From the NCBI GenBank assembly GCA_040767085.1, contig JAXGPF010000009.1:64001-128000 (forward strand): DNA of 64,000 nucleotides, written 5' to 3'. The position numbers were made by a program, and so were the translations under genes. The DNA comes from Kiritimatiellia bacterium (GTDB lineage: Bacteria > Verrucomicrobiota > Kiritimatiellia > JAAZAB01). Below the pieces are notes generated by a model. It was not told the DNA's origin. It saw only the letters and a list, made by a program, of their open reading frames with translations, and did no database searches. Below, one piece after another: positions 46,518-64,000 of this stretch (position 1 is the first letter of the stretch; each line of letters opens with the position of its first letter).

Positions 46518-46625
46518 ATGTGATTTCGCGGGATTAAACTCAAAATCCAGGCAGGCCAAACACTTTGATCCCACGTCTTTGAAGACGGGTGCGGCCACTT
46601 TATCGAAGTATCTGATTAAGGCAGC

Positions 46626-47810: not shown

Positions 47811-47985
47811 CTTTAGCCTTGCGATGTTATAAAAATAGATTTTGCTGTGGGTAATTATCAATGCCAAGGTAAATCGGGGTGCTAGTGAACAATCGGCGTG
47901 CTTTGGCGAAGTTCAACAGTAACTAAGACAGGTGGCTGTCTGTTGAAGAAATCGCAGCGCATCCATGTCCGCCGTAGTTCTTGGC

Positions 47986-48185
47986 ATGTAGACTAGATAG
48001 CCGTCAGATGGGATACGGTTTTCACTTAAGCAAACGAAAAGGGTAACTCGTCCGCCGTAGCCAAGCATAACAGAGGCCGGATGCCGGCCCATAAAGTCGG
48101 CAAGCTCTGGAAGTTTCGGACGGAAGATGTGGACAAATAGGTGCGATTGAGAAGAACCAGCGCCAAGGGCAAGAAGAATAAGTAG
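47986..48185 (+). pseudogene. Decayed excisionase/MerR-type HTH gene
   Basis: 48081-48146 reads MPAHKVGKLWKFRTEDVDK*VR, with TAG (48138-48140) where Xis-family proteins have Trp; upstream part disrupted by stops. Confidence 0.7.
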
Positions 48186-48207
48186 AGCCTGCCGGGAAGG
48201 ATACGGT

Positions 48208-51200
48208 ATGCCACGGATATTCGACAATATTGAAGATAAACTGCTACCCGCGCTCTCCGCCATGCTGGAGGTGTCAAACCGGAGTGACTTCTGTGTCGGC
48301 TATTTCCGTATGCGCGGTTGGAATACCCTCGCCCCATTTATCGAAAAATTCAAAGGCGGTCACGATACTTGTTGCCGGGTACTCGTCGGCATGCACCGCC
48401 CCCCGGAAGTGGCGATGGAAGAGGCCCAGAAGATCATCCAGAAAAACCTATATCTGGACGGCCCCACCGTCGCCCGGCTTCGTCGAGACGCCGCCGAGAG
48501 CTTCAAACAGCAGATCGAGTTCGGCATCCCGTCGAACGAGGCGGAGTCCGCGCTCCGTACACTCGCTCGCCACATCCGTGAACGCAAGGTGCGAGTTAAG
48601 CTTTTCTTGCGCTATCCCCTCCATGCCAAGCTCTACCTCACACATCGCCATGATCCGGCTGCTCCGATCGTAGCCTTTCTCGGAAGTAGCAATCTGACCT
48701 TTGCCGGTCTCTCCCATCAGGGCGAGCTGAACGTAGATGTCGTTGAACATGACGCTGCCGAGAAACTGCAGAAGTGGTTTCTGGACCGTTGGGAGGACAA
48801 ATTCGCCTTCGACATTTCTGACGAACTCGCCGAACTTATCGAGACAAGCTGGGCCAGCGAGAAACTTGTCCTGCCTTACCACGTCTATCTGAAGATCGTG
48901 TATTATCTGTCCGAGGAAGCCCGCCGGGGCGAAAGGGAGTTCAAGCTACCGAAAGTCTTCCAGAACGTCCTGCTTGATTTCCAGGAACGGGCCGTCTCGC
49001 TTTCCGCCCACTATCTCCATGCCCGTGGAGGCGTCATGCTGGGCGATGTGGTGGGCCTTGGTAAGACTCTCATGGCCACCGCCATCTCTCGAATCTTCCA
49101 GGAGGATGACGGAAGCAACACCCTCGTCATCTGCCCGCCCAAACTGGAGAAAATGTGGCGGTGGTACATGTGCGAGTACGGTATCACCGGCGATGTTCTT
49201 TCCTTAGGCCGTGTCACTCAAGACCTGGTGAATCTGCGGCCCTATCGCCTGGTGATCATTGACGAAAGCCACAACCTCCGTAATCGCGAGAGCAAACGCT
49301 ACCGGCACATTCGGGAGTATCTGGAACGGTGCGAGCCACGGGTCATGCTCCTGAGCGCCACGCCCTATAACAAGCATTTCACGGACCTGAGCAACCAGCT
49401 TCGCCTGCTCGTGGACGAGAACCTGGACATCCATGTCCGCCCCGAGCAGTATTTCAAATGGTGGGCTTCCCAAGGCAAGACGGAAGCCGATTTCATCGCC
49501 CAGTACCAGACATCGCCCCGTTCAATCCGTGCCTTCGAGCAGAGCGAGTTCGATGCCGACTGGCGCGATCTCATGCGTCTCTTCCTGGTCCGCCGCACCC
49601 GCCAATACATCATGGAGAAGTACGCCAAGTTCGATCCTGAAAAGCAGCGCTACTTCGTCATGCTGAAGGGTGAGCCGTTCTACTTCCCGAAACGCCAGCC
49701 CCGCACAGTCGAGTTCAGCCTCGATCAGGACAACCCGAACGATCAATACGGCAGCCTCTATCGGGATGCGATCGTGGATCAGATCGAACACCTCTTCCTC
49801 CCGCGTTATGGGCTGGCCCACTACCTTGACTTGGCAAAGGCCCGGAAGGCTTCCGATGCCGAGAAGCGCATCCTGGACAATCTGAACCGCGCAGGCCCTC
49901 GGCTACGCGGTTTCTGCCGGACAGGCATCTTCAAGCGCTTGGAGTCCAGCGGGCATTGTTTCCTGCTCTCCCTTCAGCGTCACATCCTCAGGAACATGGC
50001 AGCTATCCACGCGCTGGAGAACGACTTGCCGCTTCCCATCGGCACCCAGGATGCCGCTCTACTCGACGAAGCCATAACGGATACCGATACAGACGCTGAT
50101 CCCGATGAGAACGGCGGCGGTGGCGGATCCAACGGGACTCCCGCTGTGGCACCCAGCCTTGCCGCATTCAAGAAGCGCGGGGCGGAGATCTACAAGGAAT
50201 ACCGAGAGAACCAGGAATCTCGATTTTCATGGCTCCCGGTAAAATTCTTCAAGAAGGATCTCAAGGCCAACCTACTTGCCGACTGCGAGGCTCTACTGAG
50301 CATCCTCAAGAATGCTGGCCCATGGAAACCAGAGTCAGATGCCAAGCTCGCAATGCTCCAGAAGTTGATCGCCAAGACCCACCCAAAGGATAAGCTTCTC
50401 GTCTTCACGCAGTTCGCCGACACCGCCGAGTATCTGGGCCGCGAACTCGCCTCGCGCGGTGTCCAGTCGCTCCAGGTTGTCAGCGGTAACAGCGACGATC
50501 CCGTCTCCCTTGCGCGCAGATTCAGTCCAGAGAGCAACGGTGGCCTTAACGTCAATGACGAGGAAGTGCGCGTTCTCCTTGCCACCGATGTGTTGGCTGA
50601 AGGGCAGAACCTGCAGGATGCCCACATTGTGGTCAACTATGACCTGCCTTGGGCCATCATCCGGCTTGTCCAACGTGCCGGCCGCGTGGACCGCATCGGC
50701 CAGAAGCATCACACCATCTCGCTCTACTCATTTCTGCCGGCTGACGGGGTCGAGGCCATCATCCGGCTGCGTTCGCGCCTGAGCTTGCGCCTCAAGCAGA
50801 ACGGGGAAGTCATCGGTACGGACGAATCTTTCTTTGGCGAGGATGCCGCAAGCAAGTTGCGCGACCTCTATGCTGAGAAGTCATCGGCTGTCGACGAAGA
50901 CAAGGATGAGGACGTTGACTTGGCCAGCCGGGCTGAGCAGATATGGAACAGCGCGCCGGAGGAGCATCGCAAGGTTGCCGAGAGCTTGCCGCCAGTGATC
51001 TCAGCGACCCGCCCCGCGCCGATCGAGCCGGAAGGCCCGCCACACCCAGGCGGGGCCATCACCTATCTACGTTTCCCGGACGGCAGCGACGCCCTGATTC
51101 ATGTGGATGCCCGCGGAAATCTCGTCTCCCAGTCCCTGTGCGCTCTGTTCAACGCCGTTGCCTGTGGCCCCGAAACTCCGGCGCTTCCTCGCGCAGATAA

Positions 51201-51612
51201 TCACCATGATCTGGTCGCCAAGGCCGTGGAATGGGCCACGGAGGAGCAGAATGCTATGGGCGGACAACTCGGAACCGCCCGGAACATCCGCCGCAAGGTC
51301 TACGACCGCCTGAAGAACTACCGTCAGATTCTGAAGGAGCAGCCAACGCTGTTTTCGAAGGGTATCCTCCAGCATCTGGAGCCGACGTTCAACCATATCT
51401 TCCGCTTCCACCTCCGCGAAAGTGCCCGCGACTCGCTTTCCCGCCAGATGAAGTTGGGCATCACTGACGAGGGCCTGGCCGACATGGTCACCAAGCTGCA
51501 CGAGGAAGAGAAGCTCTGCATCGTGACCGACGAGATCAAGGAACAGGAACCCCGCATCGTCTGCTCCATGGGGTTTGCAGTCGGCACCGCCGGTAAGAAA
51601 GGGGTCAAGTAG
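48208..51612 (+). CDS. PLD-nuclease/SNF2-family helicase fusion
   Basis: VGYF, HAKLY, GSSNLT, GELN (PLD); DVVGLGKT, IIDESH, LSATP, VFTQFADT, EGQNLQ, QRAGRVDRIGQ. Confidence 0.9.
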   Translation: MPRIFDNIEDKLLPALSAMLEVSNRSDFCVGYFRMRGWNTLAPFIEKFKGGHDTCCRVLVGMHRPPEVAMEEAQKIIQKNLYLDGPTVARLRRDAAESFKQQIEFGIPSNEAESALRTLARHIRERKVRVKLFLRYPLHAKLYLTHRHDPAAPIVAFLGSSNLTFAGLSHQGELNVDVVEHDAAEKLQKWFLDRWEDKFAFDISDELAELIETSWASEKLVLPYHVYLKIVYYLSEEARRGEREFKLPKVFQNVLLDFQERAVSLSAHYLHARGGVMLGDVVGLGKTLMATAISRIFQEDDGSNTLVICPPKLEKMWRWYMCEYGITGDVLSLGRVTQDLVNLRPYRLVIIDESHNLRNRESKRYRHIREYLERCEPRVMLLSATPYNKHFTDLSNQLRLLVDENLDIHVRPEQYFKWWASQGKTEADFIAQYQTSPRSIRAFEQSEFDADWRDLMRLFLVRRTRQYIMEKYAKFDPEKQRYFVMLKGEPFYFPKRQPRTVEFSLDQDNPNDQYGSLYRDAIVDQIEHLFLPRYGLAHYLDLAKARKASDAEKRILDNLNRAGPRLRGFCRTGIFKRLESSGHCFLLSLQRHILRNMAAIHALENDLPLPIGTQDAALLDEAITDTDTDADPDENGGGGGSNGTPAVAPSLAAFKKRGAEIYKEYRENQESRFSWLPVKFFKKDLKANLLADCEALLSILKNAGPWKPESDAKLAMLQKLIAKTHPKDKLLVFTQFADTAEYLGRELASRGVQSLQVVSGNSDDPVSLARRFSPESNGGLNVNDEEVRVLLATDVLAEGQNLQDAHIVVNYDLPWAIIRLVQRAGRVDRIGQKHHTISLYSFLPADGVEAIIRLRSRLSLRLKQNGEVIGTDESFFGEDAASKLRDLYAEKSSAVDEDKDEDVDLASRAEQIWNSAPEEHRKVAESLPPVISATRPAPIEPEGPPHPGGAITYLRFPDGSDALIHVDARGNLVSQSLCALFNAVACGPETPALPRADNHHDLVAKAVEWATEEQNAMGGQLGTARNIRRKVYDRLKNYRQILKEQPTLFSKGILQHLEPTFNHIFRFHLRESARDSLSRQMKLGITDEGLADMVTKLHEEEKLCIVTDEIKEQEPRIVCSMGFAVGTAGKKGVK

Positions 51613-54600
51613 TGGCCATCAGATTCCAGCATGCCCGTCAGCTCCTGCAACAGTTCAATTTCCGCCAGTTGTTCGCCGAGGAACTCAACTGGGCAACCCC
51701 CTCCGCAAGGCCCATCAGCGTGGATGCGGACGGCGAAACGTTCGTGGCCACACCTATTGCTGAACAGGGCGGCATGATGGTGTTCGAGATCACCTCCAGG
51801 AAAGACGGCCTCATCCCTGGCCGGAGTGTCCAACTGAAGCTTCATCGCCGCATTGCCCAGACCTACGCCGAGCACATACTCGTCTTCGTGAACACGCCCC
51901 GCTCCTCGTCGCTATGGGTATGGGTCAAACGACAGGATGGCCGCCTGCAAACGCACGATCACTGGTACCACTCCAGCCAGCCGGGCGACTCCCTGCTGCA
52001 GAAGCTCAATGGAATCGCGTTCACCTACGACCAGCTCGACGAAGACGGCCGGATTGCCATTGGACCTGTGCTGGATGCCGTTGAGGCGTCCTTCCGGGCC
52101 GAGCGAGTCACGAAACGCTTCTACGAGCAGTTCGAGAAGGAACACGCTGCCTTCCTGAAGTTCGTCAGCGGCATTCCCGACGAGGCTATGGAGAAGTGGT
52201 ATGTCTCGGTCATGCTCAACCGGCTAATGTTCATCTATTTCATCCAGCGAAAGCGATTCCTGAGTGGAGACCGTGACTATCTCCGGCACAAGCTGACAGA
52301 AAGCGAGTATCCGCAGGGCTTCTACCGTGGCTTCCTGTGCCCGTTGTTCTTCAGGGGTTTCGCACTGAAGGAAGCAGAGCGCTCGGAAGCCGACCGCAAG
52401 CTCTTGGGGCCGGTGCCCTATCTGAATGGGGGCATCTTCCAGCAGCACGAGATCGAGCGTCAGTACGGCAAAGTCATCGAGATTCCTGACAAGGCATTCG
52501 AGCGGCTCTTCGACTTCTTCGACCGCTGGCACTGGCAGCTCGACGAACGGCCGCTCCGGCGGGATGACGAAATCAACCCGGATGTCCTGGGCTACATCTT
52601 CGAGAAGTACATCAACCGCAAGCAGATGGGCGCCTACTACACCAAGGAGGACATCACCGGGTACATCTCCCGCAACACCATCCTTCCGTTCCTGCTGGAT
52701 GCGACCCGCGAGAAATGCCGTGCTGCCTTTGAGAGTGGCACGGGCGTCTCGCCTGTGTGGGGATTGCTCCGCGACGATCCGGATCGCTACATCTACGAAG
52801 CCGTCCGCAAGGGCGTCGAATTGCCGTTGCCCCCTGAGATTGAAGCGGGCATCAAGGACGTCTCGAAACGTGGCGGATGGAACAAGCCGGCGCCGGAGCC
52901 GTACGCGCTCCCGACGGAGATATGGCGCGAGGTCGTCGCGCGCCGCAAGAGATACCATGAGTTGTTTTGTCGTCTTTCTGTAGGGCCACGCTCCGTCGTG
53001 GCCGAATACCCGGACGCGACGGAGCGCGTCCCTCCAATTCACGAGATCAACGATCTGATCACACTGAATCTGGACATCGAGCGATTTGCCCAGGACGTGG
53101 TTGAGAATGCTGAGCCGGACCTACTCAATGCCTTTTACAAGGAACTCAAGGCAATCACGGTTCTCGACCCGACCTGCGGCTCGGGAGCATTCCTGTTTGC
53201 TGCGTTGAACATCCTCTACCCCCTATACGAAGCCTGTCTCAACCGTATGCGTGTCTTCGTAGAGGACTGGCAGCGGGTCGGCGACAAAACGCACCGCAAC
53301 TACGCCAAGTGGTTCGCATCTGAGATCCAGGCCGTCGAGGAGGACCACCCGAACCAGCGCTACTTTATCCTCAAGACCATCATCTTGAACAACCTCTACG
53401 GCGTGGACATCATGAAAGAGGCCACGGAGATCTGCAGGCTCCGGCTCTTCCTCAAACTCGCTGCGCAAGTAGAACCCGACTCTGCGAAGCCCAATCTCGG
53501 CATTGAGCCTTTGCCGGACATAGACTTCAACATCCGAGCGGGGAACACCCTCGTCGGCTTTGCGACTGCGAAAGAGGCCGAAGATGTGATCCGGCAGGAC
53601 CTTCTAGCCTACAACACCGTGTGGCCCGTCATTCAGCAAAAGGCTGCGGATGCGGCCCGACACTATCAGATGTTCAGGGATCAACAGACCAAGCACGGTG
53701 GCGATGTCACGGCCGATGACAAGAAAGTGCTCTCAGAGAAACTCGGAGCACTGGACGACACATTGAGCCTGTACTTGGCTACGGAATACGGCTGTGATAC
53801 GCGCAAAAAGAGAGACTACAAAGCATGGCTAACGTCGCACCGTCCCTTTCACTGGTTCGTTGAGTTCCACGGTACGATGTCCTCTGGCGGGTTCGACGTA
53901 GTCATCGGCAACCCACCATGGGTCGAGTTCGCTAAGGTGAAAAACGAATACTCAGTACGCGGCCTATCTACCATAGAATGCGGTAACCTGTGGGCGTTTG
54001 TCGCAGAACGGTCCTATGCGCTGCTCGGCGTGACCAGTCGAATTGGCCTCATCGTCCCGATGAGCTTAGTGTGCACTGACCGCATGAAGCCGATCCAGAG
54101 CATTGTCAAGGCGGCTGGCCTGTCGTGGGTGGCCAACTTTGAGAGTGACTCGAATCCAGGGCAACTGTTCGACGGAGTGAAGCAGAACGTTACGATAGTG
54201 CTCAGTAAGCGGAGTTCAGAGTGTTCGCTTCATACAACACGGCTCCTCCGCTTCTTTCAGGAGTTTCGAGACAAGGTCTTTGCCGCCGTCGAATATACCC
54301 AATGTCCGCCGAATCCTCTCCCCTTTGGATTTCCAAAGGTAGGTTCGCTTCGCGAGTCTCTGCTTCTCAAGAAGTTGTTCGCCAAGAAGCCGCTTGCAGC
54401 CAGGATGGTTCACTCTTCGGGCAAGGCCATTCTTGTTCACCGGATTGCTCACTACTACATTAAGTGCTTCGACTTCGCACCCTATTTCAAGAGCGACCGA
54501 GACGGCGTGAAGAAGTCGGAGGACTATAAGGAGTATCCACTTGCACCGCCACTCGACCAATACGTTGCTGCAATCAACAGCTCGGCATTCTACTTCTACT

Positions 54601-54947
54601 GGCAGGTGTTCTTTGACGCGTTCAAGGCAGGCAAGCTGTGTGTGGAGTCCTTTCCTTTCGGTGAGGCATCAACGACAGGAACCCTGGCCGAGTTGGAGCG
54701 CCTAGCTCGTGCCCTTATGAAAGACATGAAGGGACACGCGACCAGGCTCAAGGCGGAATATGCGGCAACGGGCAGCGTTGAGTATGACCAGTTCTGCCCA
54801 CGGAAATCCAAAGCCATAATGGATCAGATTGACCGAGTTCTGTCCACGCACTACGGCTTCACGGCTGAGGAAGTCGATTTCATTATCAACTACGACATCA
54901 AGTACCGCATGGGTCTTGCGGGCGGCAAAGAGGACGGTGAGGAATAG
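51612..54947 (+). CDS. Eco57I/type IIG-like adenine DNA methyltransferase with C-terminal target-recognition region
   Basis: YLNGGIF, LGYIFEK, GAYYTKE, LDPTCGSGAFL, LYGVDI, FHWFVEF, FDVVIGNPPW; GTG start overlapping the helicase TAG. Confidence 0.9.
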   Translation: MAIRFQHARQLLQQFNFRQLFAEELNWATPSARPISVDADGETFVATPIAEQGGMMVFEITSRKDGLIPGRSVQLKLHRRIAQTYAEHILVFVNTPRSSSLWVWVKRQDGRLQTHDHWYHSSQPGDSLLQKLNGIAFTYDQLDEDGRIAIGPVLDAVEASFRAERVTKRFYEQFEKEHAAFLKFVSGIPDEAMEKWYVSVMLNRLMFIYFIQRKRFLSGDRDYLRHKLTESEYPQGFYRGFLCPLFFRGFALKEAERSEADRKLLGPVPYLNGGIFQQHEIERQYGKVIEIPDKAFERLFDFFDRWHWQLDERPLRRDDEINPDVLGYIFEKYINRKQMGAYYTKEDITGYISRNTILPFLLDATREKCRAAFESGTGVSPVWGLLRDDPDRYIYEAVRKGVELPLPPEIEAGIKDVSKRGGWNKPAPEPYALPTEIWREVVARRKRYHELFCRLSVGPRSVVAEYPDATERVPPIHEINDLITLNLDIERFAQDVVENAEPDLLNAFYKELKAITVLDPTCGSGAFLFAALNILYPLYEACLNRMRVFVEDWQRVGDKTHRNYAKWFASEIQAVEEDHPNQRYFILKTIILNNLYGVDIMKEATEICRLRLFLKLAAQVEPDSAKPNLGIEPLPDIDFNIRAGNTLVGFATAKEAEDVIRQDLLAYNTVWPVIQQKAADAARHYQMFRDQQTKHGGDVTADDKKVLSEKLGALDDTLSLYLATEYGCDTRKKRDYKAWLTSHRPFHWFVEFHGTMSSGGFDVVIGNPPWVEFAKVKNEYSVRGLSTIECGNLWAFVAERSYALLGVTSRIGLIVPMSLVCTDRMKPIQSIVKAAGLSWVANFESDSNPGQLFDGVKQNVTIVLSKRSSECSLHTTRLLRFFQEFRDKVFAAVEYTQCPPNPLPFGFPKVGSLRESLLLKKLFAKKPLAARMVHSSGKAILVHRIAHYYIKCFDFAPYFKSDRDGVKKSEDYKEYPLAPPLDQYVAAINSSAFYFYWQVFFDAFKAGKLCVESFPFGEASTTGTLAELERLARALMKDMKGHATRLKAEYAATGSVEYDQFCPRKSKAIMDQIDRVLSTHYGFTAEEVDFIINYDIKYRMGLAGGKEDGEE
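52980..53035. repeat. Inverted REP-like doublet inside the MTase CDS
   Basis: GTAG-GGCCACG-CTCCGT-CGTGGCC on +, and GGAG-GGACGCG-CTCCGT-CGCGTCC on -. Confidence 0.75.
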
Positions 54948-54949
54948 CA

Positions 54950-55771
54950 ATGGCGGCAATCCCTGAAATTGACTGCGGGGTGCTGGAGCGCGTCTGCGAC
55001 GTGCTCGCCGACACTTCGACCGGTCTGACGGGGTCTGAAATAGACAAACTGCTGCGGCGCTTGGGGATTGCGGATCCAGCACCAACAATGACCAAACGGG
55101 TCCGCCTGTGCGACGCCCTCGGCCAGAGACAGAAGTCTGATCATTGCGGCAATCTAGTCGCCGCATTTATCCAAGAAGCGATGAATCCGGTCCGCCATAC
55201 CGGGAACCGTGAGTACTTTGAACAAAAACGGCGTGAGTTGAATGAGGTCCTTGCATTTGCGGGCTATGACTTGGGTGAGGACGGCAAACTGCGTGTGTGC
55301 CAGTCGGCCAAGACGTTGACGGAAGCAGAAGCGCGTGCCGACCGGTTGAGGGCGGAATTGCAGAAACGCGGGGTACATGCGGACGTCTTGCGATTCTGTC
55401 GGGCAGAATTTGTTCAAGGCAACTGCTTCCATGCAGTGCTTGAGGCAACGAAGAGTGTGGCGGACAAGATTCGGAACAAGAGTGGGCTGACTACCGATGG
55501 AACGGAACTCGTGGACCAAGTGTTCGGGTCGGGCAAAGCTGGTATGCCTTTCTTGGCGTTCAATAGCCTGGGATCGGAAACTGAGCGGGGTGAACATTCA
55601 GGGCTGATGAATCTGATGAAGGGTGTCTTTGGCACGTTCCGCAATCCTACAGCTCATGCCCCGAAGATCTCCTGGAACATCAGCGAGCAAGACGCCCTTG
55701 ACCTGTTGACCATCACCTCATTCCTGCATCGCCGCCTAGACAATGCCGTTCGAACCCAGAGGACAACGTGA
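54950..55771 (+). CDS. TIGR02391-family protein with AbiJ-like N-terminal domain and HEPN-like Rx4H motif
   Basis: GLTGSEIDKLL..TKRVRL..FIQEAMNP; HADVLRFC..FHAVLEATK..DGTELVDQVF..FRNPTAH. Confidence 0.75.
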   Translation: MAAIPEIDCGVLERVCDVLADTSTGLTGSEIDKLLRRLGIADPAPTMTKRVRLCDALGQRQKSDHCGNLVAAFIQEAMNPVRHTGNREYFEQKRRELNEVLAFAGYDLGEDGKLRVCQSAKTLTEAEARADRLRAELQKRGVHADVLRFCRAEFVQGNCFHAVLEATKSVADKIRNKSGLTTDGTELVDQVFGSGKAGMPFLAFNSLGSETERGEHSGLMNLMKGVFGTFRNPTAHAPKISWNISEQDALDLLTITSFLHRRLDNAVRTQRTT

Positions 55772-55879
55772 CCGAATCCAGAGTCTCAACGCGGCACATC
55801 GTAGAGAAGGCAAGGGTATGGGAAGTCATTGTGAACTGCGCGCTCAAGCACCGCATGGAGTGTGATACGGAGGCTGGCG

Positions 55880-57808
55880 ATGAAACTGAGGCACGTTAAG
55901 ATCGCGAATTTCCGTAATCTGGTTGACGTATCGTTCCCCGTCTCCGACACGACCATCCTTGTGGGGGAGAACAACTGCGGCAAGACGGCACTGCTCGATG
56001 CAATTCGGACTGCGCTCACGAGACAGCCAACCAGCAAGGCGCTGCCCTTTACCGAGTACGACTACCACATGAAGGGCGCTGCGGATACACCACAGACGAG
56101 CCCCGGCATTTCAGTCGAGCTTTGGTTTCGCGAGGACATGACCGACGAATGGCCCAATGAAGTGACCCAGGGGCTTAGCGAGATCATCCAGACCGACCCG
56201 GATGCAGACCTGGACTACATCGGTCTTCGGCTGACAAGTCAGTATGACGCGGCCGCGAAAGAGATGGTCGCAAAGACAGAGTTTCTGGCACTGGACGGTC
56301 AGCCGCTGGGCGGTCGGGCGGCCCAGCCGTCGAATTTTCCGAAGTTCACGAACTACGTGCGTGTGTTCTATCTGTCGGCACTACGTGACTCTGATGATGA
56401 GTTCTCCCCAAGATCGCAGTACTGGGGGCGTATACTTCGTGATCTGAAGTTGACCTCCGAACAACAGAAGGAATTCAAAGATGCTCTGGGCAAGTTGAAC
56501 GAGGATCTGCTGACGGCCGATCCGAAGCTTGAGAAGGTCCGTGCGTCCCTTGACAAGGTGCAGAAGGTGCTTGCCCTGGGCTCGGGCCAGGTAGCGTCCA
56601 TTCAAGCCCTTCCTGTGCGACCCTGGGACCTGATGGCGAAGGCAGAGGTTATTGTTAAACCTCGCGGTGCCGATACGAGCTTCCCTCTCTCCAGGCATGG
56701 CCAGGGGATGCAGAGTTTGGCCGTGCTGTTCTTGTTCCAGGCATACATAGACGTGCTTCTGAAGCCTTCATTCACGCCACATACAGAGGCGCTGCTGGCG
56801 CTCGAGGAACCCGAAGCGCATCTGCATCCACAGGCGACCCGAGCACTGGCGGCAAGTCTGAATGAGATCACCAGTCAGAAGATCATCTCTTCGCATTCTC
56901 CCTACTTCATTCAAGAAATGCCATTCTCTCAGATACGGATGTTCTGCCGGTCAGGTTGCGGTGTCAAGGTTGCCTACGTGAAACGCTCGTTTGCGGTGGA
57001 CCTCCCCACGCATGCTGATCTGCTGACGTTTGTGAAGGAAAAGGGCGGCAAGTATCGATACAGCAAGACGCGCTCCATTCTGGAGGTAGGGGGTCCGGTC
57101 ACCGAGAAAGAGTACCGCGCGCTTGCCACAATCTACAGCAAGGACGTGGCCACTATGAAGCGGCTCAAATGGTTCGTGAGCGACTCTCTGACTTATCTGA
57201 CGGACGACGAACTGGAGGATTTAGATACGTGGGCGAAGAGGATTCGAGGGGAAGTCCTATTTGCCCGCGCATGGCTGTTGTGCGAGGGCCAATGCGAGTA
57301 CCTGCTGCTCAGGTACTTCGCCGAACTCATGGGTACTCCATTTGACAATAGCGGTGTGTCGGTCATCGATTTTCAGAACAACGGTTCTGCCGGCTCGTTT
57401 GTGGCCCTTGCCACTGCTTTCGACATCCCCTGGCTGCTGGTCTGCGACAATGATCCTGCTGGACAGGGCTATGCCAAGGAGGCGGAGAGATCTGCCCTGC
57501 CGCCAGCTGAGATGCAAAAGCGCCTCAGGCTTCTTCCGAACAACGGCACTGATCTGGAGAAGTATTTGGCCACCACTGGTCTCATAACGCATCTGGTCGA
57601 AGTCTTTCACCAACATGGGATTGCCCCAACTCTCAAGCAAGCGGATGCCGGATTTGCGGATGAGGTCGCGTCACTATTGCGGAAGAACAAGTTCACCTAC
57701 ATCCAAGCCCTCATCCAGCGGCTTCGGAACGCGGGAGCAGACGCAACCGCTGTTCCCGGTTCTCTGAAGTCGGTGATCGAGGACATTACAAAGGTGGCCC
57801 AATCATGA
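55880..57808 (+). CDS. OLD-family ABC-ATPase/TOPRIM nuclease 1 (GajA-like)
   Basis: IANFRN, GENNCGKT, LSALRD, HGQGMQS, LEEPEAHLHPQ, SSHSP, LCEGQCE, VCDND. Confidence 0.9.
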   Translation: MKLRHVKIANFRNLVDVSFPVSDTTILVGENNCGKTALLDAIRTALTRQPTSKALPFTEYDYHMKGAADTPQTSPGISVELWFREDMTDEWPNEVTQGLSEIIQTDPDADLDYIGLRLTSQYDAAAKEMVAKTEFLALDGQPLGGRAAQPSNFPKFTNYVRVFYLSALRDSDDEFSPRSQYWGRILRDLKLTSEQQKEFKDALGKLNEDLLTADPKLEKVRASLDKVQKVLALGSGQVASIQALPVRPWDLMAKAEVIVKPRGADTSFPLSRHGQGMQSLAVLFLFQAYIDVLLKPSFTPHTEALLALEEPEAHLHPQATRALAASLNEITSQKIISSHSPYFIQEMPFSQIRMFCRSGCGVKVAYVKRSFAVDLPTHADLLTFVKEKGGKYRYSKTRSILEVGGPVTEKEYRALATIYSKDVATMKRLKWFVSDSLTYLTDDELEDLDTWAKRIRGEVLFARAWLLCEGQCEYLLLRYFAELMGTPFDNSGVSVIDFQNNGSAGSFVALATAFDIPWLLVCDNDPAGQGYAKEAERSALPPAEMQKRLRLLPNNGTDLEKYLATTGLITHLVEVFHQHGIAPTLKQADAGFADEVASLLRKNKFTYIQALIQRLRNAGADATAVPGSLKSVIEDITKVAQS

Positions 57809-59757
57809 ACTCACGCGAACTGGATAGGGCTTGGGCGGAACTATGGCCAATCCAACGGGAAGTGGCCGAATGGGCTGAGGGGCCGTTGCTCGTTCTGGCC
57901 GGACCTGGTTCGGGTAAGACACGCGTATTGACGTGTCGAATCGCCCGGTTGCTTGACAGCACACGCGACAAAGTGTTTCGCATTCTTGGGTTGACGTTCA
58001 CAAACAAGGCAGCAGACGAGATGCGGTCGCGAGTCAGCCGGTTTGTGCCCGGACAGGAGGGGCGATTGTTCCTTGGGACTTTCCATTCGTTCTGTGCCGA
58101 TGTCCTGCGGCAGCACGGCGTCCACGTGGGGATCAACCCTAATTTCACGATCTACGCCCAAGACAACGACCTGCAGTCTATTCTTGACGATGCCATAGCC
58201 GAAGCTCGGAAGGAATGTGCGGTAGTCAGCGATCTCGACAGGAGCGTGCTCCCCGTGATCCAGCGCCTCAAGGCCCAACTCATTTCACCTCAAAACTGCA
58301 AAGAGGTGTTCCGAGATCCGCAGATGGGCGAGAGAATGGCGGCAGTCTACCCAGCCTACGAAGCACAGTTGGCGAGACGAAATGCTTTGGACTTCAACTC
58401 CCTGATACAGGCCACCCACCGCCTTTTCGTCGAGTTCCCGGCGTTTGCGAAGCGGTACCGGTCAGTCTACCCTTACATCTGCGTAGACGAGTTCCAGGAC
58501 ACGAACAAGGCACAGTCCGAACTCATCCGTGCATTCACGGGTGCCCAATACAGGAACGTCTTTGTCGTGGCAGACGACGACCAGATCATCTATCAGTGGA
58601 ACGGGGCTAGCCATCAGAGGATTGAGGAATTCGTCAAGGAGTACTCCCCGAAGATCGTGCAATTGCCGATGAACTTCCGGTGTCCCCCTGAGGTGGTCGA
58701 TCTTGCAAACAACCTGATCAGGCACAATTTCCTTCGTACTTCTCAGAAGGCGCCATTGAAACCGACACGAACCAGTCCCGGTGCAGATGTCGTACGATTG
58801 CTGCCCGTGTTTGACGATTGGGATGCTGAGGCCGAGGGCGTGGCGAGCGACATATCCGCCCGGCACGCGGATCATCTGGGGTCCGTGGTCGTCCTCGCGA
58901 GGAGCCGTCGCCTTCTGGAAGGAGTGGCACATGCGCTAGAGGGTCTTGGAGTCGCGGCTACCATCGCACAAAGGAAGGATGAGTTCCAGAGCACCCCCTT
59001 GGTGTGGCTGCACTCCGTTCTGCGACTTACGAATGAGAAGCGTGATCGCGGAAGTCTTGAGTCTCTTTGCGGGGCCTTCGCGCAGATGACAGGTGTCCAA
59101 GTTGACCCGGATGAAATATTGACCCAGGAGCAGGCATCGGGGATCGGATTCCTTCAGGAGTGGATACGTCGTGCCCAGTCGAGCACTGGCGACCGCAGGG
59201 TGCCGAACGTGGTTTCAGAAGTCTCCACCAAGCTGGTGGTCAAGCGAGAGTACGTGACGTTTTGCAGAACCGCCTTCGCCTGGATTGATGGACTCATAGA
59301 GGAACAGAGAAAGACCGCCGCAGATCCATCGGAGGAGGTATTCGCTGGCTATGCTGCGGAGAAAGCCGTCTGGAATGAACTGAGTCGTGAGATCGTCTCA
59401 TCACTGGGCGAAGACATCTCTCTTGAGGCTTTTCTGCAGGAGTTGCAGATGCACTCAAAGGAGCCGAAGCCAAAGCCAAACTCTACGGTCCTGATGACCA
59501 TACACGGATCCAAAGGGAAGGAATTCGATCATGTCTATCTCGTGGGCCTCGTCGATGACGAATTACCGTCATTTCAGAGCAAGAAGAAGGGAGACCGCAG
59601 TCCCGAGATGGAAGAAGAGCGACGAAACTGCTTTGTCGCTATCACCCGGACGATAAGCACGCTGACGTTGAGCTATGCGGAGAAGTACCGCGGTTGGCCG
59701 AAGAAGCCGTCACGGTTTTTGTTTGAAATGGGTCTGCTTGGAGGGGAACATGGCTGA
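57805..59757 (+). CDS. UvrD/Rep/PcrA-family helicase 1
   Basis: AGPGSGKT, LTFTNKAADEM, TFHSF, DEFQD, ADDDQIIY, NFRC, TIHGSKGKEF, EERRNCFVAITR; ATGA overlap. Confidence 0.92.
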   Translation: MNSRELDRAWAELWPIQREVAEWAEGPLLVLAGPGSGKTRVLTCRIARLLDSTRDKVFRILGLTFTNKAADEMRSRVSRFVPGQEGRLFLGTFHSFCADVLRQHGVHVGINPNFTIYAQDNDLQSILDDAIAEARKECAVVSDLDRSVLPVIQRLKAQLISPQNCKEVFRDPQMGERMAAVYPAYEAQLARRNALDFNSLIQATHRLFVEFPAFAKRYRSVYPYICVDEFQDTNKAQSELIRAFTGAQYRNVFVVADDDQIIYQWNGASHQRIEEFVKEYSPKIVQLPMNFRCPPEVVDLANNLIRHNFLRTSQKAPLKPTRTSPGADVVRLLPVFDDWDAEAEGVASDISARHADHLGSVVVLARSRRLLEGVAHALEGLGVAATIAQRKDEFQSTPLVWLHSVLRLTNEKRDRGSLESLCGAFAQMTGVQVDPDEILTQEQASGIGFLQEWIRRAQSSTGDRRVPNVVSEVSTKLVVKREYVTFCRTAFAWIDGLIEEQRKTAADPSEEVFAGYAAEKAVWNELSREIVSSLGEDISLEAFLQELQMHSKEPKPKPNSTVLMTIHGSKGKEFDHVYLVGLVDDELPSFQSKKKGDRSPEMEEERRNCFVAITRTISTLTLSYAEKYRGWPKKPSRFLFEMGLLGGEHG

Positions 59758-60397
59758 TCTCGCGAATCAACGCCTTACCAGCAGGGCGCTGCCAACCGGC
59801 CACCTTGACCATGGGGGACTGCATCCCTATACGCCGAAGATCCGGACTCTTTGTGACGCCGTGATCCGCAATGGCCAAACACTCGCCTTGTTTTGCTCCG
59901 TTCGATGCCCTGGCAAGCTAATCCTAGACACCTACGACGCTGTGCAGCGGTTGCGCAATGCTGGAGTCACTGTCATCAGCGGGTTCCATTCGCCAATGGA
60001 GAAGGAATGCCTGACCGTCCTCCTGCGTTCCCCAAACCCGGTAATCTGGTGTCTTGCACGTGGCAAACTGACACGTATCCCACCGGATATCAAGGAATCG
60101 ATCGCCGCCGGCCGCCTACATATTATTGCACCATTCCCGGGAAAAGTCCGCCGCCACACCGCGGCCACATGCGCCAAACGAAACCGCATCGTCGCCGACA
60201 TGGCCAATGCCGTCATTGTCGTCCACGCCGCTCCCGGTAGCAAGATCGAAGCGCTCAGCCTGTCTCTCCTCGCCGCCGGCAAACCCGTTTACACATTCGA
60301 TCACCCAGCCAACGTTGCCCTGCTTCAGGCCGGGGCGAAGACTTTGACTCCAGACACCAATTGGAAGTGGATGGCGAAAGACGGTAGTGCAAAATGA
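59750..60397 (+). CDS. Short DprA/SMF (SLOG Rossmann-like) protein
   Basis: LALFCSVRCP, VTVISGFHSPMEKE, IWCLARG, RNRIVADMANAVIVVHAAPGS; GGAGGG RBS; overlaps the UvrD stop. Confidence 0.75.
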   Translation: MADLANQRLTSRALPTGHLDHGGLHPYTPKIRTLCDAVIRNGQTLALFCSVRCPGKLILDTYDAVQRLRNAGVTVISGFHSPMEKECLTVLLRSPNPVIWCLARGKLTRIPPDIKESIAAGRLHIIAPFPGKVRRHTAATCAKRNRIVADMANAVIVVHAAPGSKIEALSLSLLAAGKPVYTFDHPANVALLQAGAKTLTPDTNWKWMAKDGSAK

Positions 60398-60408
60398 GGT
60401 AAACTCCC

Positions 60409-62469
60409 ATGTATTTGGCCGAGATACGAATTGACAGTTTTCGATTGTTCGGCACCGATGACCAAGCTCTCGTACTCCCCCTCAAGGCAGGCCTCAACGT
60501 GCTAGTTGGTGAGAACGATGCCGGTAAGACTGCGGTGATCGACGCCATTCGGTTGGCGCTCGGTACGACGAGTCAAGAGTTCCTTCGGGTCGAAAATGAC
60601 GACTTCAACCTCGCAGGAGGTAAACAGGCCTCCGAATTCACAATTCGCTGCAAGTTCGCGGACCTTGACAGGGAGACCGGAGGTTCCCTTTTGGAGCACC
60701 TCTCGTATGAGGACGGGAAGCCTTGCCTTTACGTGACGTTCCACGCAACACGCAACGAGGTGGTGAGTCCCCGGCGGCGGATCACCGTGGATGTGCATTC
60801 CGGGAAAGACGGAACCGGGCCACAGATGGATGGGAATGCTCGTCTTCTTCTCCAGGCGACATATCTTCGTCCTCTACGCGACGCCGAGCATGAACTTGCC
60901 GCCGGCAGAAACTCGCGCTTGTCCCAGATTCTCCAGTACACCAAGGAGATCGCAGAACACAAGGATGAAGTGTTCGACCCGGTAACGTTCGTGGATGCAG
61001 TGCGAGCACAAAAAAAGACGGAGTTTCCCAAGAGCATCGCCAACGTCTCACGTCTTACCGACCACTTAATCCAAGAGAACGAGGGCGTTAAGCAGGCCAG
61101 TACCCGCTTGGACAGCAGTTATCTCGTGAATCTCAATTTAGGTGGCGATAGTCTGGGGAACAGAGTCTCCGTGGGAAATGAAGCGACCGCAGATCAAAGA
61201 ATCCGGGCGGTTTTGGAGAAGCTTGATCTGCGGCTCTGCACAGTCGGCGACACCTCTGGACAACTTCCCCACGGTCTAGGCTACAACAACCTGCTATTCA
61301 TGGCCTGCGAGCTCCTTCTCCTGGGGCAGGATCGCGATACGCTACCACTTCTGCTTATCGAGGAACCGGAGGCACATCTGCATCCGCAGTTACAGTTGCG
61401 GTTGGTAGAATTCCTCCAAGAACAGGCCGACAGTACGGACGAAAGGCAAGTGCAAGTCATCATTACCACGCACAGCCCGAACCTGACATCGAAGGTGAAA
61501 CTGGCCAGCATGGTTCTCGTGTGCAAGGGTCGGGCGTTTCCGATGGGACCGGAATATACGCTGCTTTCCGAGACAGACTACCGGTTTTTGGAGCGCTTCC
61601 TCGACGTTACTAAAGCCAATCTTTTTTTCGCCCGCGGCGTCCTGATCGTTGAAGGCGATGCCGAGGCTTTGCTCCTACCCACACTTGCCCACCTTCTTGG
61701 GCGGGACCTAACCCGATACGGTGTGTCGATTGTGAATGTGGGCAGTCGCGGCCTGCGTCGCTACGCGCGAATCTTCCGCCGCCGGGCGCTTATGGATCAC
61801 AAACAGGCGCCAACTATCCCGATCCGAGTGGCATGTCTTGCGGATCGAGACATTATGCCGGATTGTGCCAGAGAAGCTTTTGGCATGAAGGATGACGGAG
61901 AAGGGCAAATCAAACGCCAGACTGGCCCAAAGTTTGAAGCTGACCTGCGCGATGACGCCGCACGTGACAGTTGGGTCAAAGCAAGGTCTCGCGACGATGG
62001 CGAAAACGTGCGAACATTTGTGTCGGACCATTGGACACTAGAATACGACCTTGCCCATGCCGGCCTCCGTTGCAGTCTGTGGAAAGCCGTTGCATTGGCG
62101 AAGGACGAGGCACGGCAGGACGCAAAGCACGGAACAACGCCTACGGACAAAGGCTCGGAGGTGCTTCAGGCGGCCGAGACATCCTGGCAGAAACTGAAAG
62201 CCAGCGTCGAAGACCGGATCGACGCACGTGAGTACCTTGCTTGCAAGGCATACAAACCTCTCTTGGACGACGTTTCGAAGCCGACAACCGCACAGCATCT
62301 GGCTTCCTTGTTGGATGTACGCTATGGCCCAAATGGCAAGCCGGAAGATCGAGACAAGTTCATCGGACTTGTTCCTGGTTACATTCTTGATGCAGTCGAT
62401 TATGTGACCGGGGGCGATCACGCGCCTGGGAAAGCCAAAAGGACCACGTGCACAGAGGATACCGTTTGA
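60409..62469 (+). CDS. gajA: OLD-family ABC-ATPase/TOPRIM nuclease 2 (Gabija GajA-like)
   Basis: GENDAGKT, YLRPLRDAE, GLGYNNLLF, IEEPEAHLHPQ, TTHSP, LERFLDVTKANLFFARGVLIVEGDAE, LADRD, WTLEYDL. Confidence 0.85.
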   Translation: MYLAEIRIDSFRLFGTDDQALVLPLKAGLNVLVGENDAGKTAVIDAIRLALGTTSQEFLRVENDDFNLAGGKQASEFTIRCKFADLDRETGGSLLEHLSYEDGKPCLYVTFHATRNEVVSPRRRITVDVHSGKDGTGPQMDGNARLLLQATYLRPLRDAEHELAAGRNSRLSQILQYTKEIAEHKDEVFDPVTFVDAVRAQKKTEFPKSIANVSRLTDHLIQENEGVKQASTRLDSSYLVNLNLGGDSLGNRVSVGNEATADQRIRAVLEKLDLRLCTVGDTSGQLPHGLGYNNLLFMACELLLLGQDRDTLPLLLIEEPEAHLHPQLQLRLVEFLQEQADSTDERQVQVIITTHSPNLTSKVKLASMVLVCKGRAFPMGPEYTLLSETDYRFLERFLDVTKANLFFARGVLIVEGDAEALLLPTLAHLLGRDLTRYGVSIVNVGSRGLRRYARIFRRRALMDHKQAPTIPIRVACLADRDIMPDCAREAFGMKDDGEGQIKRQTGPKFEADLRDDAARDSWVKARSRDDGENVRTFVSDHWTLEYDLAHAGLRCSLWKAVALAKDEARQDAKHGTTPTDKGSEVLQAAETSWQKLKASVEDRIDAREYLACKAYKPLLDDVSKPTTAQHLASLLDVRYGPNGKPEDRDKFIGLVPGYILDAVDYVTGGDHAPGKAKRTTCTEDTV

Positions 62470-62477
62470 CCGTGAGA

Positions 62478-64000
62478 ATGACCCGGCACAACCTGACCGA
62501 CTATATCCCCGAGGTCACTGACGCCGATATCGACGTGGCTCAGCGGTATTTTGGCGTTTCGTTCGACGCTGCCAGACGAGATGTCTTACGGTCGCACGAG
62601 AGCTTCGATGTTCAGGCCTGCCCCGGCAGTGGGAAGACAACATTGCTGGTGGCGAAGTTGGCGATATTGGCGGAGAAGTGGCCGCATACACGACGCGGCA
62701 TCTGTGTTCTCTCCCACACAAACGTGGCACGACTGGAAATTGAGAAGAAACTCGCGGGGGTAGCAACCGGGCAACTACTGCTTGCATATCCGCACTTTGT
62801 TGGCACGATCCACAGCTTCGTAAACGATTTTCTTGCGCTTCCCCGTCTGCGTTCGGAGGGACAGTCCATACGCTTAATCGACGACGATGCATGCGGAGAG
62901 TTCTGTCGCCGTCTGCTCTACTCGAACTGTGCCTATACAACGGCAAAACAGTTCCTCGCCCAAAAGGAACAGCATACCCCGGACCGGACCGTACGTGCTC
63001 TGAGATGTGAGGGAATGGACCTCACCCTGTGTTCCGCAGCAGGAAAGTTGCCTTGCGGGCCGTCATCAGAGAGCTACCGAATCCTTTCGGAGATCAAACA
63101 GAAAGCCTCTGGCCGTGGTCTTTGGCGCTTCGACGACATGTTTGCTTGGGCGGAAAGGCTGCTGGCGAAACACCCTGAGGTCGCGGAGTTTGCGCGTTGG
63201 CGCTTCCCTGTCGTCTTTCTCGATGAGATGCAGGACACGTCGGAACTCCAAGGACACTTGCTGGCCAACGTTTTCCCTGTCACCGCGTGCGGTCTTCGTC
63301 AGCGATTTGGCGATTCCAATCAAGCCATCTTCGACTATGGCGGGTCAAGGGCCGAGACAGATCCGTTTCCGGGAGAGACTGTCCGATCAATCCCCAATAG
63401 CCAACGGTTCGGCCCGATGATCGCCGCGAAGGCGGATCCCTTAGCACCTAACCCTCCTCATCCGGCGCTCTTGGGGGAAGGGCCGCGGCAGAATCTTTTC
63501 TCTGTCGCTATCGACACCACTCGCATGCAACACACGATTTTTCTGTTCGCCGCCGATTCGGCGAATCGCGTGCTTCCTGCTTTCGGTAAGCTCCTCCTGG
63601 AAACCTTCCCCGACGAAGTTCTGCGCTCCGAGGCATTCGTAGCGCGGGCGATTGGCCGAGTCGGGAAGTCTGACACGGATGGCAGCAAGCTTCCCAGGCA
63701 CTTAGGCGATTACTGGGTGGACTATGAACCGCGCTCGGCGAAACTGGAAGTGCGGCCTTCAAAGCTGGCTGATTACGTGCACCTTGCTCAGAGAAAGCGC
63801 GTTAACGCAATTGATTGTGCTGAGTCGGTGAAGATTGCGTTCAAGGGGATATGCGGATTGGTTGATGTTATCGCACCCGACACTGTCTCTGCTGGTGGGC
63901 AATCGATTCGGTGGCTGTGGGATGCACTCGGGGTAAACGAGGCAGCGGCAAGTATTCTTCGCAATCTTGTATGGGATTGGTGTATCGACTTGGTAACCAT
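62478..64000 (+). CDS. gajB: UvrD-family helicase 2 (Gabija GajB-like), runs off the window
   Basis: Manual translation from ATG 62478 (in-frame TTG 62466 also possible): QACPGSGKTT, LSHTNVA, FVGTIHSF, FLDEMQDT, RFGDSNQAIF, SQRFG. Confidence 0.85.
   Translation, partial: MTRHNLTDYIPEVTDADIDVAQRYFGVSFDAARRDVLRSHESFDVQACPGSGKTTLLVAKLAILAEKWPHTRRGICVLSHTNVARLEIEKKLAGVATGQLLLAYPHFVGTIHSFVNDFLALPRLRSEGQSIRLIDDDACGEFCRRLLYSNCAYTTAKQFLAQKEQHTPDRTVRALRCEGMDLTLCSAAGKLPCGPSSESYRILSEIKQKASGRGLWRFDDMFAWAERLLAKHPEVAEFARWRFPVVFLDEMQDTSELQGHLLANVFPVTACGLRQRFGDSNQAIFDYGGSRAETDPFPGETVRSIPNSQRFGPMIAAKADPLAPNPPHPALLGEGPRQNLFSVAIDTTRMQHTIFLFAADSANRVLPAFGKLLLETFPDEVLRSEAFVARAIGRVGKSDTDGSKLPRHLGDYWVDYEPRSAKLEVRPSKLADYVHLAQRKRVNAIDCAESVKIAFKGICGLVDVIAPDTVSAGGQSIRWLWDALGVNEAAASILRNLVWDWCIDLVT

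Follow-up and report, generated by a model that had tools for sequence, protein, structure and literature searches.

We analyzed a 64,000-nucleotide stretch of a Kiritimatiellia bacterium genome (the window), whose right-hand end carries five genes on the forward strand: a small DprA-like (SLOG) gene, here called DPR (protein P0001, 215 aa), stands between two pairs of genes that each encode an OLD nuclease and a UvrD-like helicase, the GajA and GajB proteins of Gabija. A first-pass annotation had taken the five genes to be one new defense system in which the DprA-like protein bridges the two Gabija-like pairs. Comparison with related loci led us to a different reading, which we consider likely: DPR would be the terminal accessory gene of a restriction-like unit whose other parts, a PLD nuclease-Snf2 helicase fusion (SNF) and a DNA methyltransferase (MT), lie further upstream; the first Gabija pair (Gabija-1) would be embedded in this unit, the second (Gabija-2) would follow it as an independent system, and the whole would belong to an island at a tRNA-Pro gene. 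The five-gene reading fails because the OLD-UvrD-SLOG order is not conserved in the related loci compared, a result that the annotation itself had named as speaking against it.

Conserved partners of the DprA-like gene

Relatives of DPR were sought in one genome per species with A1, an alignment of 33 family members in which the window protein is the first row and sets the residue numbering used below. The scan returned 377 relatives, and the loci compared here (L numbers) are those of the best 80; many of them are short metagenome-assembled contigs cut near the gene, and their open reading frames (ORFs) come from a simple longest-ORF caller. Eight proteins of the window's island were compared with the 80 loci by tblastn, with a threshold of 60 bits for a Gabija match. 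Homologues of SNF and MT were found upstream of DPR, on the same strand and with 40–55% identity over their full length. Of the 38 loci with at least 5 kb of upstream sequence, 26 carry MT upstream in the same orientation and 24 carry SNF upstream; the corresponding numbers were 22 and 21 of 33 loci with at least 8 kb, and 18 and 17 of 25 loci with at least 9.9 kb. When 891 ORFs from the 80 loci and the window were clustered de novo, only three clusters proved recurrent, DPR (65 loci), MT (30) and SNF (22), every other cluster being confined to eight loci or fewer. The gene order was constant: helicase, methyltransferase, variable genes, DprA-like gene. MT-bearing loci came from Verrucomicrobiota, Lentisphaerota, Kiritimatiellota, Planctomycetota, Acidobacteriota, Nitrospirota, Cyanobacteriota, Thermodesulfobacteriota, Aminicenantes and Hydrogenedentota, and since their flanks vary, the SNF-MT-DPR unit appears to travel as a block. 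Downstream of DPR, none of 57 co-oriented proteins was recurrent or Gabija-like; many of these were housekeeping proteins (P-type ATPase, sulfatases, glycosyltransferases, sensor kinase), with occasional defense genes. As the downstream genes do not recur, the conserved unit ends at its 3' side with DPR, which leaves Gabija-2 outside it. After DPR in two loci (L011 1460–5495 and L062 10695–14527), we observed a Snf2 helicase with DUF3670 next to a protein of about 320–330 aa that has no Pfam match, a gene pair that may be another helicase-based system.

In the window, SNF occupies positions 48208–51612 (+) and MT positions 51612–54947 (+), the MT start overlapping the SNF stop. The first-pass annotation, which began its system at 55880, was thus drawn too narrowly and left the recurrent partners of DPR outside. 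SNF is a fusion of a PLD (HKD) nuclease with a Swi2/Snf2 helicase (Pfam PLDc_2, RE_NgoFVII, SNF2-rel_dom and Helicase_C). It contains one HxK...GSSN PLD motif (HAK, with H139 and K141) and the Snf2 motifs GLGKT and DESH, and a sequence search of the PDB related it to Snf2-family remodellers and RapA. In PADLOC it matched C3a139 'HKD+Snf2' (145 bits) and, partially and over the C-terminal helicase lobe, DrmD (130 bits); matches to DrmMI were also partial. MT is a type-IIG-like N6-adenine DNA methyltransferase (Pfam Eco57I and MmeI_Mtase; full-length PADLOC match to REase_MTase_IIG, PDLC03628, 909 bits) with the motifs DPTCGSG and NPPW. Pfam recognized no nuclease domain in its residues 1–500, a simple PD-ExK pattern search was blank, and no PDB relative was found by sequence. 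We infer that SNF is the restriction component and MT the self-marking component of a restriction-modification (RM)-like system.

Two named systems were considered for the SNF-MT pair and rejected. DISARM does not apply, as the DrmD and DrmMI matches are only partial and a DrmA or DrmB (DUF1998) gene is missing. Type-2 BREX-related (BR, formerly Hma) loci are defined in PMC12839542 by an HKD-Swi2/Snf2 helicase, an N6-methyltransferase, a DUF499 AAA+ ATPase and a stand-alone DUF3780 protein, and the island genes scanned, from 40080 to 64000, gave no match to DUF499 or DUF3780. A homologous helicase-methylase pair was also seen on plasmid pSYSX of Synechocystis PCC 6803, a tractable model cyanobacterium (43696–51513, L083), where the two genes are separated by a VapC-family toxin gene and a small hypothetical ORF and followed by a DUF2513 gene.

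The stretch between MT and DPR is a variable slot. At least one ORF of at least 100 aa lay there in 25 of the 30 MT-bearing loci, and the MT and DPR tblastn matches were only 96, 115 and 602 nt apart in L077, L073 and L048, respectively. Pfam matches were obtained for 28 of 43 slot proteins and included OLD-type ABC ATPases (AAA_21/AAA_15), RhuM, a Ser/Thr kinase, DUF4276, SIR2-STAND-TPR, DarT with a Macro partner, MNT with HepT, EVE, YhcG PD-(D/E)XK, Schlafen/AlbA_2 with HATPase_c_4, a reverse transcriptase, and a LexA-like repressor with a second IIG-type methylase. PADLOC matched 21 of 41 slot proteins to known or candidate defense families (HEC-01A/B, HEC-04, PDC-S05, PDC-S02, PD-T4-6, DarT/DarG, PD-Lambda-5 A/B, PDC-M04 A/B, DRT UG19 and a ThsA-like SIR2), the other 20 having no match. 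The slot of the window holds a Ymh/HEPN gene and Gabija-1, and Gabija-2 stands outside the unit. The cargo is also tightly spaced against DPR in other loci, where it is unrelated.

Several observations on slot genes stand beside this pattern. The Ymh gene of the window (54950–55771, +) encodes a Hypoth_Ymh (HEPN-type) protein (Pfam E 2.7e-42) resembling PD-Lambda-3_B (PADLOC, 288 bits, full length); among the 25 best matches listed per protein, the neighbors scanned show no PD-Lambda-3_A match. PD-lambda-3 is mentioned as an abortive-infection control in PMC13190303. A cluster of 186–199-aa proteins (c11) is encoded directly upstream of DPR in L003 (7137–7697), L006 (9138–9737) and L021 (from 365), loci with differing host-system types, and the L003 and L006 copies have no Pfam or PADLOC match. 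A three-gene cassette lies inside the slot in both L013 (5496–9983) and L022 (4231–8679); its genes encode a LexA-like repressor (S24 peptidase), another IIG-type methyltransferase (about 1060 aa) and a protein of 211 aa.

We found no match of at least 60 bits to GajA1, GajB1, GajA2 or GajB2 at any of the 80 DPR loci. Neither the five-gene order nor the OLD-UvrD-SLOG triplet, whose recurrence the first-pass annotation had proposed as a check, occurs among these best 80 of 377, and its SLOG-bridged composite system is therefore not a conserved arrangement. The Gabija genes were encountered elsewhere on their own. We counted 44 plasmid records with GajB1-like genes, of which three reach about 47% identity, and 58 with GajA2-like genes, of which 52 cover at least 80% of the query; the DprA-like family had 0 matches in 72,556 plasmids. 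On Methylocystis bryophila plasmid p1, a 47%-identical GajB1 homologue belongs to a stand-alone ATPase-helicase pair with unrelated neighbors, and on a Bosea plasmid, a 46%-identical GajA2 homologue likewise belongs to a stand-alone pair with unrelated neighbors and no DprA-like gene. Since both Gabija subtypes exist on plasmids as plain two-gene units without DPR, neither needs a third partner.

The five genes themselves were correctly identified in the first-pass annotation. All are open frames on the + strand where they had been placed, and the minimal spacing reported for them was found exactly. GajA1 (55880–57808, +) is a class-2 OLD nuclease with ABC ATPase and TOPRIM domains (PADLOC GajA PDLC00062, 672 bits, full length), and its gene overlaps that of GajB1 (57805–59757, +), a UvrD/PcrA-like SF1 helicase (PADLOC GajB PDLC00114, 848 bits, full length; Pfam UvrD-helicase and UvrD_C), by the four nucleotides ATGA. 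The DPR gene (59750–60397, +) starts 8 nt before the end of gajB1 and is followed, after an 11-nt gap, by the gene for GajA2 (60409–62469, +), an OLD nuclease (PADLOC GajA PDLC00099, 662 bits, full length). GajB2 begins at 62478 (ATG) or 62466 (TTG), which leaves either an 8-nt gap or a TTGA overlap with gajA2, and continues on the + strand to 64000, where it is cut by the window end (PADLOC GajB PDLC00147, 441 bits, model positions 3–478 of 637). Gene starts were set from Shine-Dalgarno-like sequences and the start points of family alignments: GGAGG precedes the ATG of GajA1 at 55880, where the PADLOC alignment begins at residue 7 of the longer ORF, and GGAGGGG precedes the ATG of DPR.

Pfam placed AAA_15/AAA_21 and OLD-like_TOPRIM in both GajA proteins and a UvrD-helicase domain in both GajB proteins. 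The two nucleases had been described as divergent, with their catalytic motifs kept, and this was borne out: they share 26% identity over 374 columns, and a pattern search located Walker A (GENNCGKT in GajA1, GENDAGKT in GajA2), Walker B (EEPEAHLHPQ in both), the TOPRIM glutamate (LLCEG and LIVEG) and DxD (CDND and ADRD). By sequence, GajA1 matched OLD 6p74 and GajA 8jq9 in the PDB, and GajA2 the class-2 OLD structures 6njv and 6nk8. The helicases are 24% identical over 262 columns and both keep motifs I, Ia and II; the motifs that the annotation had named are there, TFTNKAA in GajB1 and ACPGSGKT and SHTNVA in GajB2, the latter also showing DEMQD in the N-terminal 507 residues that lie within the window. 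As all four outer genes match PADLOC GajA or GajB models, gajA1-gajB1 and gajA2-gajB2 are, by these matches, two ordinary Gabija pairs of different PADLOC subfamilies. The fallback that the annotation had offered, two layered Gabija variants, fits the data to the extent that the pairs are divergent, independent and stacked in one island. A scan for promoters and terminators was no better than shuffled sequence (7 promoter-like sites vs 7.3 expected).

The DprA-like protein family

The family to which the DprA-like protein belongs comprises at least 1317 proteins at E ≤ 1e-3, among 1829 candidates. The 120 best relatives are 56–74% identical to the window protein over 69–96% of the query, and most are 170–300 aa long; in an alignment with members of several phyla, identity to the window protein is 54–71%. 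C53, G78-F-H-S-P-M-E84, H159-A160 and S164 are invariant in A1, and C49 is nearly so. Conservation does not extend to the first 33 residues of the window protein, for which disorder is predicted; the protein's closest database relative, P0002, encoded on a 3.5-kb contig and 70% identical over 96% of the query, has the same N-terminus. A different N-terminal extension, of about 90 aa with a consensus like MKRLTxEQQK...GLVEMQKWFMK..., was seen in 8 of the 33 A1 members (L008, L012, L009, L018 and others) and is absent from the window copy.

Sequence comparison connects the family to DprA at a distance. The Pfam DNA_processg_A match is 31.9 bits against a cut-off of 29.6, and the NCBIfam dprA equivalog TIGR00732 was not passed (30.7 bits against a cut-off of 191.15). 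The ESM Atlas label is 'DprA family', and a PADLOC match to PsyrA is partial (37 bits). A search of PDB sequences with the family profile gave only a marginal DprA match (E 0.12), and a fold search was therefore needed. The AF2 model built with A1 (pLDDT 83) consists of the disordered residues 1–33 followed by a single alternating strand-helix Rossmann-type domain, and Foldseek placed DprA structures first in the PDB (3uqz, 3maj, 4ljk and 5mll), the first three with E values of 5e-9 to 3e-7 and a query-normalized TM of about 0.60. ShosA (8zva) ranked 14th, followed by Moco-carrier (MCP), LOG and YpsA proteins. The DprA/SLOG call for the middle gene is thus confirmed by the structural evidence. 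A complex prediction with two DprA-like cores (residues 34–215, A1) scored 0.00 and 0.00 against a mark of 0.42 and weighs neither way. Our search for fused forms of the domain gave two longer proteins, neither informative. In L029 (8467–9555) and also L027 (3–1070), we noticed a 362-aa cargo protein, encoded directly upstream of DPR, with a DprA-like segment (36% identity over 99 aa), which suggests tandem DprA-like paralogues in some loci.

The pocket and loop residues of canonical DprA are regarded as functionally essential. In a profile alignment with S. pneumoniae DprA, three loop segments at strand ends, GSR..., GxxxGID and E...SG, are replaced in the family by the invariant CSVxCPG, GFHSPME and HAAPGSK. 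With a pocket altered and made invariant in this way, binding of a ligand or an enzymatic function would also be conceivable. We tentatively propose that the family may form an undescribed class of accessories for ATP-dependent restriction-like systems, one that has its own invariant Cys/His/Glu pocket, closes the operon and lies beyond the cargo slot. If this were true, the window would hold three layers, namely restriction, an embedded Gabija and a safety module, and not a new Gabija variant.

A model for the region and its alternatives

SNF-MT is not the only context in which DPR was observed. It closes a Type I locus in L062 (HsdM, Schlafen, one unknown, HsdS, HsdR, DPR) and an Hma/BR locus in L006 (DUF1156 methylase, DUF499 ATPase, DPR); it ends Type III-like loci in L003 (ResIII helicase, Schlafen, N6_N4 methylase) and L078, lies beside Dnd genes in L067, and in L020 is part of a defense island with a TOTE-type primase-helicase. 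In a quick maximum-likelihood tree of 79 DprA-like cores, with SH-aLRT support only, the proteins group by host phylum (a PVC clade, for instance, has SH-aLRT 99), and those from the Type I, Type III-like and BR loci branch from among the SNF-MT ones. The nearest relative of the window protein in the tree is that of L003 (70% identity), which has a Type III-like context. DPR is, as judged from these contexts, an optional accessory of several ATP-dependent restriction-like types that tracks host lineage above partner type. Such tracking would suit a protein that contacts a host factor on ssDNA, RecA or SSB for instance.

The gene identities, the constant order, the changing cargo, the lack of Gabija at the other DPR loci and the fold are results; the activities of all of the region's proteins we infer from their families, and the following model is built on them. 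The region would be the right-hand part of a tRNA-Pro-integrated defense island that holds three separate things, in which case the DprA-like protein would not be a sensor bridging two Gabija pairs. As in other members of their families, MT would mark self DNA, and the ATP-driven Snf2 translocase with its single-HKD nuclease would attack DNA that lacks the mark. Gabija is a nucleotide-sensing nuclease-helicase complex, and the copy in the slot, judged by its family, most likely acts as a self-contained Gabija; by analogy with embedding in BREX, Hma and Type I loci, it may fire as a second line once a phage disables or evades the restriction layer. Gabija-2 would be an independent second Gabija of the other subtype, just outside the unit. 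Hma, BREX and BR loci are described as housing embedded defenses, including Gabija and PARIS, as backup (bioRxiv 10.1101/2024.01.29.577857; PMC12839542); in the first of these sources, Ocr is cited as a Gabija trigger and embedded PARIS and Gabija are argued to be a second line (bioRxiv 10.1101/2024.01.29.577857), and a backup role is argued likewise for BREX and BR loci (PMC12839542).

For the DprA-like protein, the precedents are toxin-antitoxin pairs: the defense-linked DprA-like proteins known so far are antitoxins, and PsyrA is paired with a RecQ-family helicase. ShosA is described as a dimer that binds ssDNA and RecA and neutralizes ShosT without binding it (PMC12961424), and an annotation table places a PsyrA/RecQ-helicase pair between BREX genes (PMC11232893). 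Our best guess is that the DprA-like protein, like ShosA and PsyrA, may act on ssDNA, on RecA or on both and so dampen or signal the DNA damage caused by the translocating nuclease, an action that would amount to self-protection, an antitoxin-like alleviation of restriction. Even granting that DPR is an accessory, we regard this role, which is drawn by analogy, as somewhat doubtful. If true, it would bear on how systems with a translocating nuclease avoid autoimmunity.

A number of results weigh against the view that DPR belongs functionally to the SNF-MT unit. MT is missing from 12 of the 38 loci with at least 5 kb upstream, and the neighbors of DPR in at least L024, L037, L053 and L064 are metabolic or unrelated genes. 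An SNF homologue is present in 32 plasmid records and DPR in none, plasmids being a poor proxy for genomes; Pelobacter pPRO1 and Synechocystis pSYSX carry SNF and a DNA methyltransferase without a DprA-like gene, and on Nostoc pNPUN01, SNF is followed by a protein annotated as having an RNA-binding domain, with neither a methyltransferase nor a DprA-like gene. The occurrence of SNF and SNF-MT without DPR on plasmids makes DPR an optional accessory and not a core subunit. Distance-matrix (mirror-tree/Mantel) correlation was r = -0.03 between DPR and MT (1202 of 2000 permutations as high) and r = 0.29 between DPR and SNF (106 of 2000 as high); this test was uninformative, because MT and SNF, an obvious pair, also gave r = 0.02. 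Co-orientation was not significantly more frequent for the upstream neighbor of DPR (54/69) than for the downstream one (48/73; Fisher p = 0.135). The 8-nt overlap of gajB1 and DPR is compatible with co-translation with Gabija-1 in this genome. Lastly, the locus counts rest on the best 80 of 377 relatives, with their many short metagenome-assembled contigs.

These points bear most directly on the possibility that DPR is an autonomous module, either a small defense or antitoxin-like gene or a host-adapted DprA paralogue, that gathers beside restriction-like systems without any functional tie to SNF-MT. We think this unlikely, and it is still the alternative with the most in its favor. DPR has four kinds of restriction-like partner and in some loci stands beside metabolic genes only, SNF-MT occurs without it, a co-evolution signal is missing, and fused forms, with two longer proteins, are nearly absent. 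Moreover, DPR follows host phyla in its tree, and loci with SNF-MT are spread over that tree (the 30 rows show 26 label changes, a number as low in 429 of 500 shuffles). However, an autonomous module would leave it unexplained that SNF and MT are the sole recurring neighbors and that DPR is always downstream of them on the same strand, with the cargo falling between MT and DPR and mostly non-defense genes beyond; in addition, it is unlikely that a protein of about 190 aa, made up of one Rossmann domain and lacking an effector domain, acts as a defense by itself.

The other two alternatives tie DPR to Gabija, and both draw on the compact layout of the window. If the five genes were one composite system, with the DprA/SLOG protein as the sensor of ssDNA or nucleotides and the link between the two Gabija modules, one would expect what is seen locally: co-oriented, tightly packed genes, including the 8-nt overlap with gajB1 and the 11-nt gap to gajA2, and no convincing promoter or terminator between them, although the scan was at chance level. 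The same tightness is found where unrelated cargo abuts DPR in other loci, the conserved partners of DPR are other genes, none of the 80 loci carries a GajA or GajB match, and both Gabija subtypes stand alone on plasmids, where DPR is absent; we therefore regard the composite system as very improbable. A co-option confined to this genome, with the DprA-like protein recruited to embedded Gabija-1, for instance to handle ssDNA made by GajB1, could draw on the same overlap and on the non-conserved, predicted disordered N-terminus that the window protein has in common with P0002. Comparative support for it is nil among the 80 loci and the conserved core of the window protein is typical of the family, which leaves it only slightly less improbable. 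The reading that we prefer, an SNF-MT unit closed by DPR with Gabija-1 as its cargo and Gabija-2 beyond, accommodates both the constant gene order and the changing content of the slot.

The island and its relation to known systems

A tRNA-Pro (CGG) gene found by ARAGORN at 44675–44751 (+) is the likely integration site. It is followed by a tyrosine recombinase (integrase; 44874–46517, +; Pfam Phage_integrase, E 4.4e-12) and by an ankyrin-repeat protein (46626–47810, +; Pfam Ank_2, E 1.1e-13; no PADLOC match), and GC content falls from about 0.63 to 0.51–0.60 from the tRNA gene on to the window end. Together, the tRNA-Pro gene, the integrase and the GC drop likely set the left boundary of the island, which is at least 19 kb long. 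Integrase homologues (cluster c14) were also found near DPR in L033 and L047. A search for attachment sites revealed no repeat of the tRNA-Pro end within 44600–64000, which places the right end of the island beyond the window; the sole notable direct repeat in that interval is the Walker-B coding stretch common to both gajA genes.

The remaining window is ordinary chromosome, with a class-I aminoacyl-tRNA synthetase (Pfam tRNA-synt_1), nucleoside phosphorylases, GH95 and CBM9 proteins and a LacI-type regulator. Some of its features deserve mention. Just before the tRNA-Pro gene, at 41742–44607, where GC is already lower, lie an IS481-type HTH/transposase-like gene and an HtrA-type protease (Trypsin_2 and two PDZ domains). 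Ankyrin-repeat proteins, unusual cargo for a defense island, occur twice in the window, beside the integrase and in the chromosomal part at 2722–3423. Four successive large ORFs (453, 484, 642 and 671 aa) at 16021–22986 (-) have no Pfam match at E ≤ 1e-8 and are flanked by two CBM9-containing proteins, each of more than 1000 aa.

Embedded defenses are already in print, the five-gene arrangement is not a conserved entity among the 80 loci, and the Gabija pairs are ordinary. The region shows, in clean form, how a complete known system, Gabija, is lodged inside a restriction-like locus type that lies outside the studies of Hma, BREX and Type I embedding. With it, HKD-Snf2/methyltransferase loci become a further scaffold for discovery through 'guilt by embedding', about half of the slot genes examined having no PADLOC match, and attention is drawn to a widespread, strongly conserved DprA-like protein as the recurring last gene of ATP-dependent restriction-like systems. 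We did not find an RM-linked DprA-like accessory in print in open-access full text, and the word 'DprA' has zero occurrences in the two embedding papers (bioRxiv 10.1101/2024.01.29.577857; PMC12839542).

Among known systems, Gabija is matched most fully: both pairs have full-length PADLOC GajA and GajB matches (GajB2 lying partly outside the window) with catalytic motifs kept and the helicase adjacent and co-oriented, and they differ from it in subtype only, pair 1 sitting embedded inside another system. With canonical DprA/Smf, the DprA-like protein shares the Rossmann-type DprA domain, its best structural match, but it lacks the flanking SAM or winged-helix domains, and its context is defense rather than competence. 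ShosA (of ShosTA) and PsyrA (of PsyrTA/RqlHI) likewise combine a DprA Rossmann fold with a genetic tie to DNA-acting enzymes. They are larger (308 residues in the ShosA chain and 398 in the PsyrA model, against about 190–215 aa here), and the partners of the window protein are restriction-like helicase-nucleases, without a PRTase or RecQ-type toxin gene. Assignment to ShosTA or PsyrTA was accordingly rejected: the immediate neighbors are GajB1, of the UvrD family, and GajA2, and no PRTase (ShosT) or RecQ (PsyrT) partner recurs in the 80 loci.

The SNF-MT unit resembles Type-2 BR in its N-terminal HKD nuclease fused to Swi2/Snf2, its adjacent N6-methyltransferase and its embedded backup effectors, and differs from it in having a DprA-like gene in place of the DUF499 ATPase and DUF3780. 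Its variable slot between conserved core genes recalls embedded-defense loci in general, such as those of Hma 'guilt by embedding', the auxiliary effectors of BREX and BR, and PrrC in EcoprrI, and the kinds of cargo are the same: the slots of our set hold HEC-01/HEC-04 ATPases, RhuM, YhcG, Schlafen, HEPN, DarTG and Gabija-type OLD nucleases, and similar cargo is reported for embedding loci (bioRxiv 10.1101/2024.01.29.577857; PMC12839542). In the loci described here, however, the host of this cargo is not Hma, BREX or Type I but an HKD-Snf2 helicase and a IIG-like methyltransferase closed by a DprA-like gene.

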